Assembly: GCA_945872565.1 (NCBI GenBank)
Contig: CAMBZN010000004.1
Coordinates: 20,190 to 84,189, forward strand
DNA: 64,000 bases
Direction: 5' to 3'
Source: Chlamydia trachomatis
Lineage (GTDB): Bacteria > Chlamydiota > Chlamydiia > Chlamydiales > 2-12-FULL-49-11
This document shows positions 3,744 to 9,406 of the stretch, piece after piece. The position numbers and the translations under genes are program-made. The notes beneath the pieces are model-generated. The model had not been told where the DNA came from and did no database searches. It saw only the letters and a list, made by a program, of their open reading frames with translations. Each line of letters begins with the position of its first letter. Position 1 is the first letter of the stretch.

Positions 3744-4583
3744 ATGCGCATTGGAATCTGCCCCAGTTATGATAAAATTCCTGCAAAAAACTTTGTTTTC
3801 CCCATCATGGAGCATTTGCATCGACATAATGTTGAAGTGTTTATCGATGATGAGGTCAAAGGACTATTCCCTCTTCCTCTCATAGAAAAAGATACGCAAA
3901 TAGACCTTTTTATCACCCTTGGCGGTGATGGAACCCTTTTATATTTTGTAAGTAAATACAAAAACCATAAAAACGCCCTCTTTACAGCCATTAACTTTGG
4001 GTCCCTTGGATTTATGGCAGATATTCGTATCGAAGAGTTTGAAGGGTATCTTGACGACATTATTAGCGGCAAGTGGAAAATTCACAACCGAATTATGCTC
4101 GACGCTGTTTCTCCTGATGGGAGAACTTATTTTGCTGTTAACGACATTGTTCTCCATAGGGGAGAAACAAAATCAATGGTAGAGCTTGAAGTGACTATTG
4201 ATGGGGAGTACTTTAATACTTTTCAGTCTGACGGACTGATCATTTCAACCCCAACTGGATCAACAGCCTATTCCTTAGCAGCGGGCGGTCCAATTATAGT
4301 TCCTACCCTCAACGTTTTTGTAATCACCCCCATCTGCCCCCATACACTCACCACAAGACCCTTTGTCATCCCAGACACCTCCATCATAGAAATTAAATCC
4401 ATTTCAAAAAACAGCTCTATCACCTCTACCGTGGATGGGTTAACTTCCTATCAGCTTGAAAAAGATCAAATCACCACCCTAAAAAAGTCTCCCTCCACCT
4501 TCAACCTGATTTTTTTTCCGGGCAAAGATAATTCTTTTTACTCTACTTTACGGCAAAAGCTTGGCTGGAAGGGCTATCATTAA
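3744..4583 (+). CDS. nadK: NAD kinase
   Basis: 279 aa with GGDGT, NFGSLGFM and TPTGSTAYSLAAGGPI motifs. Confidence 0.9.
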   Translation: MRIGICPSYDKIPAKNFVFPIMEHLHRHNVEVFIDDEVKGLFPLPLIEKDTQIDLFITLGGDGTLLYFVSKYKNHKNALFTAINFGSLGFMADIRIEEFEGYLDDIISGKWKIHNRIMLDAVSPDGRTYFAVNDIVLHRGETKSMVELEVTIDGEYFNTFQSDGLIISTPTGSTAYSLAAGGPIIVPTLNVFVITPICPHTLTTRPFVIPDTSIIEIKSISKNSSITSTVDGLTSYQLEKDQITTLKKSPSTFNLIFFPGKDNSFYSTLRQKLGWKGYH

Positions 4584-4653
4584 AATGTAGATTTTAATAT
4601 CAATTGGATCGATTTGAAATTTGTTGCTACAAATTCTAATATTGTCGTAATGT

Positions 4654-4690
4654 ATTGTTTATCAGTGTTTAGCAAAAAATTAACAAAAAA
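4654..4690 (+). promoter_or_regulatory. conserved upstream block of the small-protein cassettes (candidate promoter or 5' leader)
   Basis: ATTGTTTATCAGTGTTTAGCAAAAAATTAACAAAAAA ends about 10 nt before the ATG. It is identical at 5770-5806 and closely similar at 6497-6533. It contains TTGTTT, 17 nt, then AATTAA, which is only a weak sigma70-like match. Confidence 0.3.
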
Positions 4691-4699
4691 GGGCATTAT

Positions 4700-4978
4700 A
4701 TGAACGTAACCTCAATAGGACAACAAACAGTAAATCAAGCACAAAATAAAACAGGATACCTAGGTGGGTATTCTTTTTCTTTAGCAAATATTCCAGGAAA
4801 TATTCGTAAACATGCAATTGCTCTTACTGCTTTAATTGTACAAGCAAACATCGATCTTGCAGCAGCAGGTCCCATGGCATACGGTATCTGTGTAGGGGGA
4901 TGTTTTGTTTTATGTCCACCCTTGATACCACTATGTCTAGTTGAATGTTTACCTCTTCTAGCAGTTCCAACGCCATAA
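4700..4978 (+). CDS. small twin-CX3C hydrophobic-tail protein, paralog A (92 aa)
   Basis: One of four paralogs sharing TGYLGGYSFSLxNIPGN and C-X3-C-X10-C-X3-C. A hairpin terminator follows. I recognise no homology. Confidence 0.7.
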   Translation: MNVTSIGQQTVNQAQNKTGYLGGYSFSLANIPGNIRKHAIALTALIVQANIDLAAAGPMAYGICVGGCFVLCPPLIPLCLVECLPLLAVPTP

Positions 4979-4988
4979 TTTCTTCAAA

Positions 4989-5022
4989 GCTACTAATTTG
5001 AAGTATTAGTGGCTTGTTTTAT
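4989..5022 (+). terminator. intrinsic terminator after paralog A
   Basis: The GCTACTAAT (4989-4997) / ATTAGTGGC (5005-5013) stem has one G-U pair and a 7-nt loop, followed by TTGTTTTATT. Confidence 0.6.
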
Positions 5023-5070
5023 TCAACAGTCATTAAATGATTGAAACCATGATAGTAATAACTAATATTA

Positions 5071-5449
5071 TTAAGAGGAGTCTGTTAGTTTTGTTTTCTC
5101 TTTAAATATTGTGTATAAAATCGTTCCGTATAAAAAAACAAGCGGTAGCCCCATTGCGGCTATAAACATCGTCACTATTAAAGTGATCCTTTGAGCTGAG
5201 GAGTTGTAGATTGTAAGGCTATTGCTTGCATAGTCAATAGATGAGGGGATCATATTTGGAAATGTCCCTATCAAGACAAGTAGAAATAAAAACACAATTG
5301 TTGCCATAGAAGAGATGAAGCTATACCCATAACGTCGTTTAGAAAGAGTAACGGGCAAAAGACCTATAAAGATCTGCATTACAAGTGGAACAAGAAAAAA
5401 GAATTTATATGTAATAAAAGCCTCAGTCATCCTTGGCACCGATCCCCAT
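5071..5449 (-). pseudogene. cydB 3' fragment (duplication remnant)
   Basis: Copy of the last ~125 codons of cydB (compare VPRMTAAFITYKFFFLVPLV in the full gene). It lacks the first ~215 codons and ends exactly at the duplication junction. Confidence 0.85.
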
Positions 5450-5699
5450 CTGCCCTCATAGACTCACCACCCGCCCATTTGTCATCCCAGACACCTCCAT
5501 CATAGAAATTAAATCCATTTCAAAAAACAGCTCTATCACCTCTACCGTGGACGGGTTAACTTCCTATCAGCTTGAAAAAGATCAAATCACCACCCTAAAA
5601 AAGTCCCCCTACACCTTCAACCTGATTTTTTTTCCGGGCAAAGATAATTCTTTTTACTCTACTTTACAGCAAAAGCTTGGCTAGAAGGGCTATCATTAA
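5450..5699 (+). pseudogene. nadK 3' fragment (duplication remnant)
   Basis: Copy of the last ~83 codons of nadK (ICPHRLTTRPFVIPDTSIIEIKSISKNSS...). It has no N-terminal catalytic part. The TGG codon near the end has changed to TAG (5682-5684). Confidence 0.85.
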
Positions 5700-5769
5700 T
5701 ATGTAGATTTTAATATCAATTGGATCAATTTGAAATTTGTTGCTACAAATTCCAATATTGTCGTAATGT

Positions 5770-5806
5770 ATTGTTTATCAGTGTTTAGCAAAAAATTAAC
5801 AAAAAA
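5770..5806 (+). promoter_or_regulatory. conserved upstream block (copy 2)
   Basis: Identical to 4654-4690 and at the same 46-nt offset from the ATG. Confidence 0.3.
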
Positions 5807-5815
5807 GGGCATTAT

Positions 5816-6094
5816 ATGAACGTAACCTCAATAGGACAACAAACAGTAAATCAAGCACATAATAAAACAGGATATTTAGGAGGATATTCATTTTCTCTAT
5901 TGAATATTCCAGGAAATATTTGTAAATATGCAATTCCCCTAACTGCCATGATTGTGATGGCAAACATCCCAAAGGTCGATAGCGGACCTTTAAGTTATGC
6001 TGCTTGTTGCCTAGCATGCACCGCATCCCTACCTCCAGCTGTTCCTGCTTGTCTCACTTTGTGTGGAATAATTCTTTTTTTCCCATCACCATAA
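5816..6094 (+). CDS. small twin-CX3C hydrophobic-tail protein, paralog B (92 aa)
   Basis: This is the most divergent paralog. Its tail is ACCLACTASLPPAVPACLTLC, yet the C-X3-C-X10-C-X3-C spacing and central PP are retained. No terminator follows, and it is 44 nt upstream of paralog C. Confidence 0.65.
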   Translation: MNVTSIGQQTVNQAHNKTGYLGGYSFSLLNIPGNICKYAIPLTAMIVMANIPKVDSGPLSYAACCLACTASLPPAVPACLTLCGIILFFPSP

Positions 6095-6138
6095 TATTTT
6101 TAACAACCAAACTTTTATAAACTTCAAAAGGAGACTTT

Positions 6139-6423
6139 ATGTCAGCGATAACATGCGTAACAACAAATCAAAATGCAAATCCACAACCAATCAAAACAGG
6201 ATACCTGGGTGGGTATTCTTTTTCTTTAGCAAATATTCCAGGAAATATTCGTAAACATGCAGTGGCCCTTACTGCTTTAATTGTACAAGCAAACATCTCT
6301 CTTGCAGCAGCAGGTCCCATGGCATACGGTATCTGTGTAGAAGGATGTTTTCTTTTATTTCCACCTCTAACACCAATCTGTGTAGTTGGGTGTTTACCTC
6401 TTCTTGCAGCTCCAACCCCATAA
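6139..6423 (+). CDS. small twin-CX3C hydrophobic-tail protein, paralog C (94 aa)
   Basis: A strong AAGGAG lies 8 nt upstream of the ATG. The body is nearly identical to paralog A from GYLGGYSFSL onward. A hairpin terminator follows. Confidence 0.7.
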   Translation: MSAITCVTTNQNANPQPIKTGYLGGYSFSLANIPGNIRKHAVALTALIVQANISLAAAGPMAYGICVEGCFLLFPPLTPICVVGCLPLLAAPTP

Positions 6424-6433
6424 TTTCTTTAAA

Positions 6434-6468
6434 GCCACTAATTTGTATTATTAGTGGCTTATTTTATT
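6434..6468 (+). terminator. intrinsic terminator after paralog C
   Basis: GCCACTAAT (6434-6442) / ATTAGTGGC (6450-6458) form a perfect 9-bp stem, followed by TTATTTTATT. Confidence 0.6.
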
Positions 6469-6496
6469 CAGCAGTGCATAAGATTATTTAACTCAG

Positions 6497-6533
6497 ATTG
6501 TTTATCAGTCCGTAGCAAAAAAATTACAAAAGG
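6497..6533 (+). promoter_or_regulatory. conserved upstream block (copy 3, diverged)
   Basis: ATTGTTTATCAGTCCGTAGCAAAAAAATTACAAAAGG precedes paralog D. Confidence 0.3.
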
Positions 6534-6540
6534 CTATTTT

Positions 6541-6822
6541 ATGAACGTAACTTCAGTAGTAGAAAAAGCACTAAATCAAATAGAAAAAAATGTAACAGGA
6601 TATTTAGAAGGGTACTCATTTTCTTTATGGAACATTCCAGGAAATATGCGTAAGCATGCAATTGCTCTTGCTTCTTTAATTCTAGATGCAAACACTACCT
6701 TTGCCGAAGTAAGTCCTATGGCCTACACAATCTGTCTAGGGGGATGTTATCTTTTATATCCACCCTTTGTACCAATATGTCTATTTGAATGTTTACCTCT
6801 TTTACCGGCTCCATCCTCATAA
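6541..6822 (+). CDS. small twin-CX3C hydrophobic-tail protein, paralog D (93 aa)
   Basis: The ORF-track start (GTG 6454) lies inside the preceding terminator hairpin. The internal ATG at 6541 gives MNVTSVVEK, which aligns with MNVTSIGQQ of paralogs A and B. Confidence 0.7.
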   Translation: MNVTSVVEKALNQIEKNVTGYLEGYSFSLWNIPGNMRKHAIALASLILDANTTFAEVSPMAYTICLGGCYLLYPPFVPICLFECLPLLPAPSS

Positions 6823-6833
6823 TTTCTTTAAAT

Positions 6834-6868
6834 CCACTAATTTGTAGTATTAGTGGCTTGTTTTATTC
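6834..6868 (+). terminator. intrinsic terminator after paralog D
   Basis: CCACTAAT (6834-6841) / ATTAGTGG (6849-6856) form the stem, followed by CTTGTTTTATT. Confidence 0.6.
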
Positions 6869-6902
6869 AACGAAGCATTAGACTATTGAACCAAGGAATA
6901 TC

Positions 6903-6997
6903 AGACCTTTTTCGAAACTCCATTTGCTCACTAAAACAGCAATTTTCGCACCTTTACCATCAATTTTTTCGAGCAAAGCGAATTTCGAAAGAGGTCT
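6903..6997. repeat. long-range inverted repeat just downstream of the cydB stop
   Basis: AGACCTTTTTCGAAA (6903-6917) pairs with TTTCGAAAGAGGTCT (6983-6997). The arms are 15 nt with one mismatch and a 65-nt spacer. This segment is absent from the duplicated copy near 5030-5070. Confidence 0.4.
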
Positions 6998-6998
6998 A

Positions 6999-8027
6999 TT
7001 AATAAGAAGAGTCTGTTAGTTGCGTTTTCCCTTTAAATATTGTGTATAAAATCGTTCCGTATAAAAAAACAAGCGGTAACCCCATTGCGGCTATAAACAT
7101 GGTCACTATTAAAGTGATCCTTTGAGCTGAGGAGTTGTAGATTGTAAGGCTATTGCTTGCATAGTCAATGGATGAGGGAATCATATTTGGAAATGTCCCT
7201 ATCAAGACAAGTAAAAATAAAAACACAATTGTTGCCATAGAAGAGATGAAGCTATACCCATAACGTCGTTTAGAAAGAGAAAAGGGCAAAAGACCCATAA
7301 AGATCAGCATTACAAGTGGAACAAGAAAAAAGAATTTATATGTAATAAATGCCGCAGTCATCCTTGGCACCGATCCCCATGTCCATACAGTTGCAGTAAG
7401 GAAAAAAAAGTAAAACAAGGGAGTCAGATATTTTGCAAAGCCATGCAGTTTTTCTTGCAACTCCCCTTCTGTCTTCATAAGAAGAAAAATTGCACCATGA
7501 GTAGCAAAAAGGGAAATGGCAAACATCCCCATAAAAATAGAGTAAGGGTGGAAAATTTCACTAAAAGAAATAATCATCTCCCTTTCAGCATTCACCGGAA
7601 CACCCACTAGAAGATTACCCAGCATCACACCCAATGAAAAAGTAATAATCACTGAAGCCAGCCAAAAAGCTCCATCCCAAAAATATCTCCAAGTCAAAGA
7701 CTTTTCTTTTGATCTAAATTCAATAGCAACACCCCTAATAATGAATCCAAGGAGCATAAGCATAATAAGTAAATAAAAACCTGACAATAAAATTGCATAC
7801 ACATCTGGAAATGCTACAAATAATGCCCCAAAAATAGCAATTAACCACACCTCGTTACCATCCCAAAAAGGGCCGATAGAATTAAGAAGAATTCGACGAT
7901 TTTCATCCTTACCTACAAAAACCTGTAAAATTCCCACACCCAGATCAAAGCCGTCTAAAACAACATACAAAGCAACCGATGCCCCGACAATTAAATACGC
8001 TAATATTTGCAAAACTTGTGTTGACAT
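6999..8027 (-). CDS. cydB: cytochrome bd ubiquinol/menaquinol oxidase subunit II
   Basis: 342-aa polytopic membrane protein immediately downstream of cydA. It has a typical CydB N-terminus (LDGFDLGVGIL...WDGNEVWL). Confidence 0.9.
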   Translation of the reverse strand: MSTQVLQILAYLIVGASVALYVVLDGFDLGVGILQVFVGKDENRRILLNSIGPFWDGNEVWLIAIFGALFVAFPDVYAILLSGFYLLIMLMLLGFIIRGVAIEFRSKEKSLTWRYFWDGAFWLASVIITFSLGVMLGNLLVGVPVNAEREMIISFSEIFHPYSIFMGMFAISLFATHGAIFLLMKTEGELQEKLHGFAKYLTPLFYFFFLTATVWTWGSVPRMTAAFITYKFFFLVPLVMLIFMGLLPFSLSKRRYGYSFISSMATIVFLFLLVLIGTFPNMIPSSIDYASNSLTIYNSSAQRITLIVTMFIAAMGLPLVFLYGTILYTIFKGKTQLTDSSY

Positions 8028-8035
8028 ATCCCACC

Positions 8036-9406
8036 TTATTTTTTATTTAATTCTAAATATGGATCTTTATACTCTGAAATTAAGTCTTTTTCATCATCAA
8101 AAACCGGACCTTTTTGTATCTTCTTATTCAAAAGGTAGAAAAACAATGTTCCCATCATGCTATACATCACAACAAACATAATCAAAGAGGCAATCACATC
8201 AGATCGACTGATCACTCTTGAGACCCCTTCGGTTGTTCTCATAACATTATATACAATCCAAGGTTGCCTTCCCACCTCTGCTGTAAACCATCCCGCCATG
8301 TTTGCTATGTATGGAAACGCAATGCCCACCATTGCAAACCAAAGAAACCACTTTCTTTTAAGAAAATCCTTTCTAAAGTAAAGTCCTAAAATTGCTATAA
8401 GGACCATCCCCCCCCAGCAATAAATCATCATATGGTAACAATAAAAGACAGTAGGTACATGCGGCCAATTCTCTTTTGGAAATTCATTTAAGCCGGGCAC
8501 TGCCTGGTGTAAATTACGGTATGTTAGCATACTAAGCCCTGAAGGGATGGAAATTCCATATACTTTCTCTGTTTTCATATCCACAATACCAATTAATGTG
8601 ATCGGAGTGTTTGGCTTTGTCTCAAAAATCCCTTCAAGTGCTGCAAATTTCACAGGTTGGTCTTTTGCAACCCCCCTTGCACTACTATCTGCTGACCAAA
8701 GCTGTAGCATAAGGGTAACAAGGGCTACCCAAAGCATCGACGTGAGCATTTTTTTCGCAAAAAAATCATGTCTTTTTTTGAGCACATAATAGGCACAAAT
8801 ACTAATTACAAAAAATATACCTATTAAGAAGCATCCTAAAAGCACATGGCCAAGCCTTGTGAGAAATGATGGGGAAAAATAGACCTGCCACAAATCTGTA
8901 ATCACAGCCCTTTTATAAATCCCCTCACCTACAATTTTATATCCAGCCGGTGTTTGCATCCATGAATTAGCCATAACAATCCACGTAGCGCTAAAAGTTG
9001 CCCCCAAAGAGACCATGATTGTCGCAAAATAGTGAGTAAGCGGCTTTACCCTTGTCCAGCCAAATATCATGATGCCTAAAAACCCCGCCTCCATAAAAAA
9101 TGCAAATACACCTTCTGCTGCAAGCATGGAACCAAAAACATTACCAACAAATTTTGAAAATTGCGACCAGTTATTTCCAAAAGCAAACAGCTGCACAAAA
9201 CCTGTTGCCACTCCCATTGCAAAAAAAAGACCGAAAATATTTACCAAAAAACGGGTGATTTTGTAGTAATCTTTGTTTTTTGTTTTTACATACATCCCTT
9301 CCATGAACATAATCACCCAAGCAAGTCCTATAGTCATAGGGGGGAATAAATAATGAAAAGAGATGTTCAACGCAAACTGAATACGAGATAGCATCGTAAC
9401 GTCCAT
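8036..9406 (-). CDS. cydA: cytochrome bd oxidase subunit I
   Basis: 456 aa with the GWFTAEVGRQPW signature and conserved N-terminal FHYLF(P)P. Confidence 0.95.
   Translation of the reverse strand: MDVTMLSRIQFALNISFHYLFPPMTIGLAWVIMFMEGMYVKTKNKDYYKITRFLVNIFGLFFAMGVATGFVQLFAFGNNWSQFSKFVGNVFGSMLAAEGVFAFFMEAGFLGIMIFGWTRVKPLTHYFATIMVSLGATFSATWIVMANSWMQTPAGYKIVGEGIYKRAVITDLWQVYFSPSFLTRLGHVLLGCFLIGIFFVISICAYYVLKKRHDFFAKKMLTSMLWVALVTLMLQLWSADSSARGVAKDQPVKFAALEGIFETKPNTPITLIGIVDMKTEKVYGISIPSGLSMLTYRNLHQAVPGLNEFPKENWPHVPTVFYCYHMMIYCWGGMVLIAILGLYFRKDFLKRKWFLWFAMVGIAFPYIANMAGWFTAEVGRQPWIVYNVMRTTEGVSRVISRSDVIASLIMFVVMYSMMGTLFFYLLNKKIQKGPVFDDEKDLISEYKDPYLELNKK

Follow-up and report, generated by a model that had tools for sequence, protein, structure and literature searches.

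Our analysis of a 64,000-nucleotide stretch of the chlamydial contig CAMBZN010000004.1 (hereafter the window, whose positions are used for all coordinates given without a contig name) revealed that four small genes lying between nadK and cydBA, named here paralogs A to D, can be regarded on the strength of their sequences as real members of a previously undescribed protein family. This family is defined by a sharp signature, AxA/GP-x2-Y-x2-CX3C-(PP)-CX3C-...APTP, in which a cut is predicted between AxA and GP, and it includes at least 92 clusters of uncharacterised proteins that match neither a solved structure nor any model of Pfam, NCBIfam, PHROGs or PADLOC. The explanation that best accounts for our results as a whole, and to which we give about an even chance of being right, is that its members are exported peptides of two subtypes that are cleaved by signal peptidase I (SPI) after export by Sec, stapled into hairpins by disulfides and involved in an accessory function of the envelope.

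Four paralogs and the extent of their family

The original prediction, made from the DNA letters and a list of open reading frames (ORFs), had placed four same-strand ORFs between nadK and cydBA at the positions listed in Table 1; they were found there, all on the + strand, and a hidden Markov model (HMM) of the family run on the six frames of the whole window matched these four genes only (E 1e-24 to 1e-30). The four cysteine strings that it quoted and the C-X3-C-X10-C-X3-C spacing around a central PP are correct in all four paralogs, whose alignment contains 35 invariant columns, including TGYL.GYSFSL.NIPGN, the four Cys and the central PP. The TGYL(G/E)GYSFSL block, described as nearly invariant, is so among the window paralogs but is specific to this genome and relaxed across the family, where it takes roughly the form G-[RK]-[YF]-S-x-x-L-P-x-I-x-x-N-x-N-K. 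The paralogs show synonymous codon differences within the invariant peptide block and their dN/dS values (Nei-Gojobori method) range from 0.32 to 0.74, which agrees with the earlier proposal of selection on a translated product and argues that the + frame is the selected one.

A profile built from the four sequences was compared with 1.84 billion proteins and retrieved, at E ≤ 1e-3, 92 representative clusters (clustering at 50% identity); word-indexed searches yielded further members. The cellular carriers that are named by their source are all Chlamydiales or Anoxychlamydiales metagenome-assembled genomes (MAGs). Every cluster is tiny (one to four sequences) and all of them are of metagenomic origin; therefore, cultured and well-sequenced chlamydiae appear to lack this family. 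A search of GTDB representative genomes with the pattern of the A-type (one of the two subtypes described below) gave 67 stretches, none of which was confirmed, so that the search located neither the genome of the window nor a close carrier among species representatives.

The failure of the original prediction to name any family for these proteins was upheld by all the resources searched. Scans of the window and of phage-borne members with Pfam, NCBIfam, PHROGs and PADLOC returned only noise (E > 0.05), neither a Pfam scan nor a profile search of PDB sequences gave any match even at E ≤ 10, and a Foldseek search of PDB and BFVD with the model of paralog C gave nothing significant (best E about 1-4). 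No papers were found in the literature with the motif strings or with the combination of twin CX3C and chlamydia.

Of 109 short members, 104 have the twin CX3C motif, whose two halves are for the most part separated by 10-11 residues; a central PP is found in many members of the family but not in all. In an alignment of 86 sequences, invariance is restricted to the columns of the four Cys, whereas the Gly, Pro and Tyr of GP-x2-Y and the Pro at the C-terminus are each conserved in at least 90% of the sequences. The original prediction had made its case depend on the conservation of the cysteines in orthologs: they are indeed the most conserved feature of 86-119 distant members.

A signal-peptide-like segment followed by a cysteine-rich peptide

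When 119 members were aligned by anchoring on the Gly-Pro, the residues located upstream were found to obey the −3/−1 rule of SPI in 98-100% of the members. Position −3 is occupied by A (n = 90), V (n = 23), T (n = 5) or S (n = 1) and position −1 by A (n = 93), G (n = 21) or S (n = 2), i.e. by one of these three residues in 116 members out of 119. The two positions are asymmetric, V and T being tolerated at −3 and essentially excluded at −1, and G being allowed at −1 and absent at −3, an asymmetry that agrees with the established preference of SPI and is not found in the other Ala-rich columns of the same region. Position −2 is free (D/E/S/A/N), P is the commonest residue at −5 and G at −4, and position +1 is G in 117 members. 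The hydrophobic h-region extends over 11 residues (−19 to −9; consensus IAIPAIALFAL; median Kyte-Doolittle value of 2.45 over the 119 members) and is preceded by K at −20 in 63 of them. Overall, this segment, located at residues ~37-57 of the window paralogs, has the features of a signal peptide: a positively charged n-region, an h-region within the 7-15-residue range and a polar c-region that contains a helix breaker, with small residues at both −3 and −1 and a residue other than Pro at +1. Paralog D is an exception because of its V at −1; its putative cleavage site is atypical (AEV/SP split), and an alternative TFA/E site is found three residues upstream.

The part located after the site (median of 37 aa) is rich in A (19%), P (15%), L (12.5%), C (12%) and G (9%). 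K and R account for only 0.2% of its residues, and 74 of the 119 members do not have any charged residue in it. Translocated segments are poor in positive charge (positive-inside rule), and the missing positive charge of this part therefore fits a translocated segment. Ahead of the signal-like segment, most members carry an N-terminal extension (median of 36 aa) rich in S (14.5%), T (7.8%), Q (7.5%) and N (6.5%). Only three of the 116 complete members (P0088, P0093 and P0066) have a short classical signal peptide, which directly precedes the GP...CX3C domain; P0088 (through an identical member of its cluster) and P0093 are found on contigs of 8-12 kb and P0066 on a contig of 910 bp.

These data modify two points of the original prediction. 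The absence of a signal peptide holds for the extreme N-terminus but not beyond it, given the signal-peptide-like segment at residues ~37-57 and the short classical signals of three members. The hydrophobic tail cannot be described as two-lobed, since its first lobe comprises only ~11 hydrophobic residues and the polar stretch of 10 residues that comes next conforms to the −3/−1 rule. Taken together, the statistics of the site and the three short-signal members point to export by Sec followed by cleavage rather than to a bilobed anchor of the Inc type.

Small cysteine-rich lipoproteins of the OmcA type were also considered and rejected: there is no lipobox ([LVI][ASTVI][GAS]C), the residues preceding the first Cys being Y-[AGS]-[AIVS...] (Y in 115 of 119 members), and this Cys is located 16 residues past the h-region.

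A predicted helical hairpin

AlphaFold2, run on paralog C with a 44-sequence alignment, predicted helices at residues 58-73 and 75-84/86-90 on both sides of the PP (pLDDT 87-89), as well as a 20-residue helix (34-53) over the signal-like segment. The model of paralog B has helices at residues 57-70 and 73-88 (pLDDT 72-79), and the N-extension is disordered in both models. Such modelling had been suggested together with the original prediction, and the tail came out as helix-PP-helix in B as in C. The cysteines of paralog C, at residues 66, 70, 81 and 85, are symmetric about the PP (66+85 = 70+81 = 151). Judging from this residue numbering, C66 and C85 on the one hand and C70 and C81 on the other hand would be opposed in an antiparallel hairpin, as a twin-CX3C staple requires. 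A disulfide-stapled hairpin located in the envelope, to which these models lend themselves, is a plausible and favoured, although unproven, reading.

Two subtypes encoded by paired genes

Most of the tail residues differ in paralog B, as previously noticed; however, this paralog is better described as the member of a separate conserved subtype (B-type), which is paired with the A-type in other genomes. The B-type tail, GPLSY-x-ACC-x-AC...LFFPSP, has orthologues displaying 64-78% identity in other genomes, and the A-type tail, GPMAYG-x-CVE-x-CF...C-x-P-x-L-x-AP[TS]P, orthologues displaying 58-82% identity, whereas the A-type and B-type mature parts of a same genome are just 36-44% identical. 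The reverse is found for the N-terminal halves (leaders), which are 36-63% identical within a genome and 25-45% identical between genomes. Since tails are conserved between genomes and leaders within a genome, leader and tail evolve as distinct modules, as would be expected if the leader were removed and the tail were the part that functions. The clearest case was found in a Chlamydiales MAG (GCA_030681135.1; positions 1227-2080 of locus L009), where two divergently oriented members have almost identical first 55 residues and different Cys-rich tails. This pair adjoins genes encoding YidD and the secretin of a type II secretion system (GspD).

A B-type gene followed on the same strand, 20-60 nt further, by an A-type gene was found not only in the window (B-C) but also in L002/L003, L004/L005 and L091, and several short contigs carry one member of each type. 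This pairing, which is thus recurrent in at least four genomes, suggests a two-component peptide system. On a 5-kb ENA contig, the 201-aa protein P0012 contains a B-type and an A-type member in a single ORF, through read-through of the C-terminus of the B-type; it results either from a sequencing frameshift or from a natural fusion and, in both cases, confirms the B-then-A order.

A protein of 199 aa, encoded on the − strand of L132 (5696-6295), is convergent with, and directly downstream of, member P0096 (5390-5644). It carries an uncharged Gly/Ala-rich tail of 65 aa (GGGPLGAVG...AAIAPTP, ending at the stop codon), with a GP start and an APTP end similar to those of the family and with one Cys. 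According to this single case, the tail module may also be attached to larger proteins.

Genomic contexts and carriage by phage-like elements

The contexts of the family genes differ among genomes (dapB/asd, topoisomerase IV/Sel1, GspD/YidD, Kdp/PDH). One of the carrier contigs, L004 (209 kb), has the gene order sodM-accD-dut-ptsN-ptsN, which we take to be that of Chlamydia trachomatis. Furthermore, at least ten phage-like contigs carry members, among which contigs of 35-41 kb with genes encoding a P22-type portal, a terminase, RusA, ERF/RecT, YqaJ and Rep_O. Some were retrieved from metagenome assemblies (L006/L007, L008, L090 and L131). Seven other contigs with true members (L092, L094, L095, L097, L108, L110 and L117) were identified in IMG/VR by means of a degenerate DNA pattern for GP-Y-CX3C-X10/11-CX3C, chance matches being removed with the HMM; a scan of IMG/VR with the alignment of the phage subtype gave no match. 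Two different members are found side by side in L008, L090, L092 and L110. They form an insert on the opposite strand between replication and packaging genes in L008 and are located at the edge of the recombination operon in L090 and L110.

In the 41.2-kb phage contig L131 (7001-7938), P0129, a degenerate member devoid of the first CX3C, lies between RusA and terminase. The next genes encode a 62-aa protein with a lipoprotein-like N-terminus and a C-terminal transmembrane (TM) segment, then an 86-aa protein with a single TM domain and a charged tail. This group of small genes could be a lysis-type cluster; no recognisable endolysin was found near the member. In L006 (Logan SRR22808078), the four consecutive ORFs (47-114 aa; 6777-7789) located immediately upstream of the phage-borne member consist almost entirely of Gly/Asp/Ala/Glu repeats (GDGxG-type) and have no family match.

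A tblastn search of deposited phage genomes with a phage-borne member gave no match. The portal of the phage that carries this member is only ~22% identical to known portals, indicating that these phages are remote from any deposited phage, and the host therefore cannot be inferred from the portal. Comparison by blastp of the phage loci with the chlamydial loci examined here did not find any common gene besides the family, and hence no independent link between these phages and chlamydial hosts. That the family is a new class of Sec-exported, two-component hairpins, each stapled by two disulfides and common to environmental Chlamydiae and to 35-41 kb phages with a P22-type portal, is a tentative and rather unlikely proposal in its complete form. 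If it were true, these elements would be tailed phages of chlamydiae and the peptides a phage-derived module that serves, for instance, in exclusion, lysis or the remodelling of membranes and is fitted to a chlamydial envelope cross-linked by disulfides. To our knowledge, the chlamydial phages established so far are only small single-stranded DNA microviruses. Carriage of the family by tailed phages provides a handle for tying uncultured phages to chlamydial hosts and a pointer to accessory envelope functions in organisms whose outer envelope relies on such cross-links.

Proposed mechanism and alternative explanations

In the mechanism that we propose, the pre-peptide would comprise three parts: a polar and disordered N-extension (~36 aa in the window, like the median of the family), a Sec-type signal segment (a basic residue, then ~11 hydrophobic ones, a break at Pro/Gly and AxA) and a nearly uncharged tail of ~37 aa rich in Ala, Pro, Leu, Cys and Gly. 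The precursor would be exported through Sec and cut by SPI between AxA and Gly-Pro. The tail, folded as the helix-PP-helix hairpin predicted by AlphaFold2, would acquire two intramolecular disulfides in the oxidising chlamydial periplasm, an outer one (C1-C4) and an inner one (C2-C3), and the stapled hydrophobic hairpin would partition into an envelope membrane. The B-type and A-type peptides would probably act jointly as a hetero-oligomer, paralogs A and D being extra A-type copies. The unit has its own promoter-like and terminator-like sequences, has no conserved neighbours and is also phage-borne; it can thus be viewed as a self-contained mobile accessory cassette. Because of this mobility and self-containment, of the absence of conserved neighbours and of a distribution that includes temperate-looking phages, we prefer, to a housekeeping role or one targeted at the host cell, a role in the envelope that is cell-autonomous and of the kind usual for accessory genes of phages (membrane modulation, exclusion). 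Of the whole proposal, this function is the least certain part. By analogy with known bacteriocins (see below), a membrane-active two-peptide system is a possible alternative function.

Several observations weigh against this explanation. An extension of ~36 aa ahead of a Sec signal is unusual, since such a signal is expected at the extreme N-terminus (~18-30 aa in total) and is not found there in most members, and the extension is constrained at the protein level in the window genome; it may have another role, for example chaperone binding or a type III signal. The h-regions of some phage-borne members are weakly hydrophobic and contain Glu (Kyte-Doolittle values of 1.25-1.45), the −1 residues of paralog D and P0028 are poor, and the dN/dS values among A-type paralogs are fairly high (0.57-0.74). 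The motif is chemically just as compatible with a four-thiolate metal site as with disulfides. Lastly, no conserved partner, immunity or receptor gene was found beside the pair, so that the envelope function is inferred only.

Part of these observations would be accounted for by a small membrane protein whose hydrophobic segment is an uncleaved N-in signal anchor, the N-extension being a cytoplasmic domain and the Cys hairpin a re-entrant or second element on the periplasmic side. The 20-residue helix predicted by AlphaFold2 (34-53), the motif of the N-extension conserved at the protein level within a genome and the lack of a good −1 residue in paralog D and P0028 agree with this arrangement. 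We nevertheless consider it unlikely, as the hydrophobic core has just ~11 residues, leader and tail evolve as separate modules and the −3/−1 pattern is exactly that of SPI (no V, L, I or T at −1 save in paralog D, no G at −3), a pattern that a simple turn would not need. The original prediction also envisaged that these proteins are small Inc-like type III substrates, the polar N-terminus acting as a type III signal and the hydrophobic region inserting into the host inclusion membrane. As in chlamydial Incs, a polar N-terminus, rich here in Ser, Thr, Gln, Asn and Ile and with few acidic residues, precedes a region of ~50 aa whose hydropathy profile looks two-lobed; the named cellular carriers are all chlamydial, the genes belong to a lineage-specific variable gene content, and the nadK/cydB spot of a close relative (L010) is occupied by a typical Inc-like gene encoding 244 aa. 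However, instead of two TM-length lobes separated by a short loop, the family has a first lobe that is an 11-residue h-region, shorter than a TM helix and ending in an AxA signal peptidase site, and a second lobe that is a hairpin broken by PP, without any cytosolic domain beyond it. Moreover, three members have an ordinary short signal peptide and no polar N-terminus, cultured and well-sequenced chlamydiae seem to lack the family, and its recurrence on tailed-phage genomes, far from a restriction to chlamydial genomes, is a poor fit for a dedicated inclusion-membrane effector. All this makes the Inc-like hypothesis weak and, in our opinion, improbable.

Other explanations concern the cysteines or the function rather than the topology. 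In either a cleaved or an uncleaved protein, the four thiols of the hairpin could, in or at the membrane, form a tetrathiolate site for Cu, Zn, Hg or Fe-S. The four invariant Cys have an i/i+4 geometry on two facing helices, B-type members have a vicinal CC like that of Mer-type membrane proteins and, in the window, the array adjoins the cytochrome bd genes; but this link with cydAB is not conserved, a close relative being devoid of the insert and other genomes having other contexts, and there are no conserved His, Met or Asp ligands. In addition, the Dsb systems of chlamydiae make their periplasm oxidising, and an exported domain is expected to oxidise there. A metal-binding hairpin hence seems quite unlikely. 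The presence of several gene copies in tandem, whose leaders are genome-specific and whose cores are conserved, the A/G-G motif similar to a double-glycine site and the resemblance of hydrophobic CX3C peptides to sactipeptides such as thuricin CD would be in keeping with precursors of modified or dedicated-transporter bacteriocins, in which a peptidase-transporter would cut a leader of ~57 aa at (A/G)-G/P and the Cys would be engaged in thioether or other cross-links. Yet no radical-SAM, LanM, YcaO, C39-peptidase or ABC-transporter gene lies beside the pair in the nine cellular or phage contexts examined, Pfam and NCBIfam gave no match to NHLP, Nif11 or bacteriocin families, and the leader has a continuous hydrophobic core, unlike the amphipathic double-glycine leaders, all of which makes such precursors very improbable. 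Precursors of ribosomal peptides that are modified after translation (RiPPs: sacti-, ranthi- or lanthipeptides) were similarly rejected, as neither radical SAM nor LanM/LanBC nor YcaO was found among the Pfam-labelled neighbours in nine contexts. Finally, the members could be membrane proteins of the holin type or otherwise involved in phage lysis, in which case the copies found on chromosomes would be remnants of prophages: the degenerate member of L131 is surrounded by small membrane proteins between RusA and terminase, and P0028 has a weak PHROG holin match (E 0.16). On the other hand, members end in ...APTP without any charged domain at the C-terminus, the surroundings of the phage copies did not include a recognisable endolysin, the positions of the genes in other phages are early or accessory ones or lie on the opposite strand, and chromosomal pairs are conserved across genomes in contexts that are not those of prophages; we hold this possibility to be highly improbable. 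A genuine holin, with a TM domain, a charged cytoplasmic C-terminal tail and an adjacent endolysin, was rejected for want of a charged tail.

Comparison with known systems

The motif and the fold principle are already known from small Tims and alpha-hairpinins, and the principle of two-peptide hairpins from gallocin-type bacteriocins. In the small Tims (Tim9/Tim10; Pfam zf-Tim10_DDP), twin CX3C motifs carried by antiparallel helices form an inner and an outer disulfide, with a spacer of similar length. The family shares the twin CX3C but has no Pfam match and an essentially uncharged mature part: small Tims are soluble and charged chaperones of the eukaryotic intermembrane space that are oxidised by Mia40, whereas the family proteins are uncharged, hydrophobic, encoded by bacteria or phages and endowed with a signal-peptide-like segment. 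Plant alpha-hairpinins have a CX3C-Xn-CX3C helix-loop-helix with two disulfides and are released as peptides of ~35 aa from a larger precursor. However, they are soluble and usually cationic defence peptides or trypsin inhibitors, without homology to the family and differing from it in biogenesis and taxa. Our proposal would thus bring the twin-CX3C stapled alpha-hairpin into bacteria and phages, in a hydrophobic and membrane-directed form.

Phage morons and superinfection-exclusion proteins (T4 Imm and Sp, HK97 gp15) are small exported or membrane proteins encoded by self-contained cassettes that are located at module boundaries of temperate phages and do not include partner genes. The family is also encoded by a self-contained cassette without partner genes, but it is not homologous to these proteins, which do not have the twin-CX3C hairpin.

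Gallocin A, a class IIb bacteriocin that is the nearest analogue described so far, consists of two poorly charged disulfide-stapled helical-hairpin peptides, GllA1 and GllA2, that permeabilise membranes only together (PMC10100652). As for the family, where B-type/A-type pairs are found, the two peptides are encoded by adjacent small genes, their leaders are modelled as disordered, and their mature parts are long, have very few charges and are each modelled as an antiparallel alpha-helical hairpin, with an intramolecular disulfide in the case of gallocin A. The membrane insertion and joint action of the gallocin A peptides (PMC10100652) are those that we propose for the family. Nevertheless, there is no relation in sequence or in Pfam assignment (Bacteriocin_IIc, PF10439). 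Gallocin A has a 23-aa double-glycine leader, a dedicated ABC transporter, one disulfide and adjacent immunity and regulatory genes, whereas the family has a Sec-type AxA site after an extension of ~36 aa, two predicted disulfides and, in the contexts examined, neither such genes nor a transporter. Furthermore, the producer of gallocin A is Gram-positive, whereas the family is found in chlamydiae and phages. By analogy, the role favoured for the family might in principle have something in common with that of membrane-active hairpins made of two peptides. Since the peptides are short enough for synthesis, the structural and membrane hypotheses are directly testable.

Organisation and history of the array

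The array includes promoter-like and terminator-like sequences as well as two pseudogene fragments that the original prediction did not mention (Table 1). A conserved upstream element of ~45 nt (4676-4699) is repeated before B and is also found before D (74% identity). Terminator-like hairpins were sought after all four paralogs, and none was found after B. The start of paralog C is located only 44 nt past paralog B, behind an AGGAG site. Given this proximity and the lack of a terminator after B, these two genes probably belong to a single transcription unit and are co-transcribed. A scan of positions 4300-7200 with Rfam gave no match. A terminator-like inverted repeat followed by a T-run also lies within the coding sequences of A (4753-4774) and C (6198-6219), over the TGYLGGYSFSL codons; it is not found in B or D because of synonymous changes, and its presence is probably a side effect of the repetition of Gly-Tyr codons.

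Table 1. Positions of the genes, gene parts and putative signals of the nadK-cydBA region in the window
Feature	Position	Strand	Remarks
NAD kinase (nadK)	3744-4583	+	Flanks the array
Promoter-like site, TTGAAA-17-TAATAT	4614-4642	+	Upstream of paralog A
Paralog A	4700-4978	+	92 aa, A-type; predicted mature peptide encoded by 4868-4975 (GPMAYGICVGGCFVLCPPLIPLCLVECLPLLAVPTP)
Intrinsic-terminator-like hairpin (11-bp stem) and T-run	4987-5025	+	After paralog A
cydB 3' pseudogene fragment	5071-5439	−	Between A and B; 96% identical to 6997-7296
nadK 3' pseudogene fragment	5433-5684	+	Between A and B; 96% identical to 4328-4627
Promoter-like site, duplicate copy	5730-5759	+	Upstream of paralog B
Paralog B	5816-6094	+	92 aa, B-type; tail GPLSYAACCLAC...LFFPSP; predicted mature peptide encoded by 5984-6091
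Paralog C	6139-6423	+	94 aa, A-type; AGGAG ribosome-binding site
Paralog C, N-extension	6139-6249	+	
Paralog C, signal-like segment	6250-6312	+	
Paralog C, predicted mature peptide	6313-6420	+	
Intrinsic-terminator-like hairpin and T-run	6432-6470	+	After paralog C; end of the putative B-C unit
Paralog D	6541-6822	+	93 aa, A-type singleton; tail encoded by 6712-6819
Intrinsic-terminator-like hairpin and T-run	6834-6866	+	After paralog D
Cytochrome bd subunit II (cydB)	6999-8027	−	Flanks the array
Cytochrome bd subunit I (cydA)	8036-9406	−	Next to cydB

The truncated cydB' and nadK' fragments stand back to back, and the region consists of two duplicated stretches (4328-5440 and 5444-7370), in which the 3' end of nadK (4328-4627 and 5444-5743) and that of cydB (5066-5365 and 6997-7296) are repeated with 96% identity. 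The fragments are what is left of a tandem duplication that took in the entire nadK-array-cydB junction and whose break-points lay within nadK and cydB. The bodies of the family genes located between the repeats are far more diverged (74-88%) than the pseudogene flanks (96%), and one simple duplication is insufficient to account for this divergence. Paralog A is a mosaic, identical to B over 4640-4745, 90-100% identical to C over 4745-4890 and closer to D over ~4895-4940. This indicates gene conversion or unequal crossing-over among paralogs.

CydB was used as a query among GTDB representative genomes for taxonomy and synteny. The closest genomes are uncultured Chlamydiia MAGs, represented by L010 (81% identity), L011 (79%) and L012 (70%), none of which carries a member of the family close to cydB. 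In L011, only 1 bp separates the stop codons of nadK and cydB (L011 4904-4906), and the neighbours xseB, xseA, tpiA, secG and def follow the gene order of the window. The corresponding spot of L010 (7026-8291) is filled by unrelated genes, including the one encoding the 244-aa Inc-like protein, which has a long, classical bilobed hydrophobic domain of the Inc type. Since the junction is empty in L011 and has another content in L010, and since these relatives do not carry any member there, the array is regarded as a recent insertion, specific to this lineage, into a spot of variable content, where it subsequently underwent tandem duplication and recombination; it has no functional link to cyd or nadK. 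The nadK/cydB junction is a hot spot for lineage-specific genes. A CydX-type small subunit of cytochrome bd was rejected as an identity for the paralogs: their genes converge on cydB, L011 lacks the array and the contexts found elsewhere are unrelated. L010 (CAMDFS010000031.1), deposited as Chlamydia trachomatis isolate MiH-16apr19-145, has a GC content of ~37.5% and a locus content similar to that of environmental Chlamydiia MAGs; its species label looks wrong.

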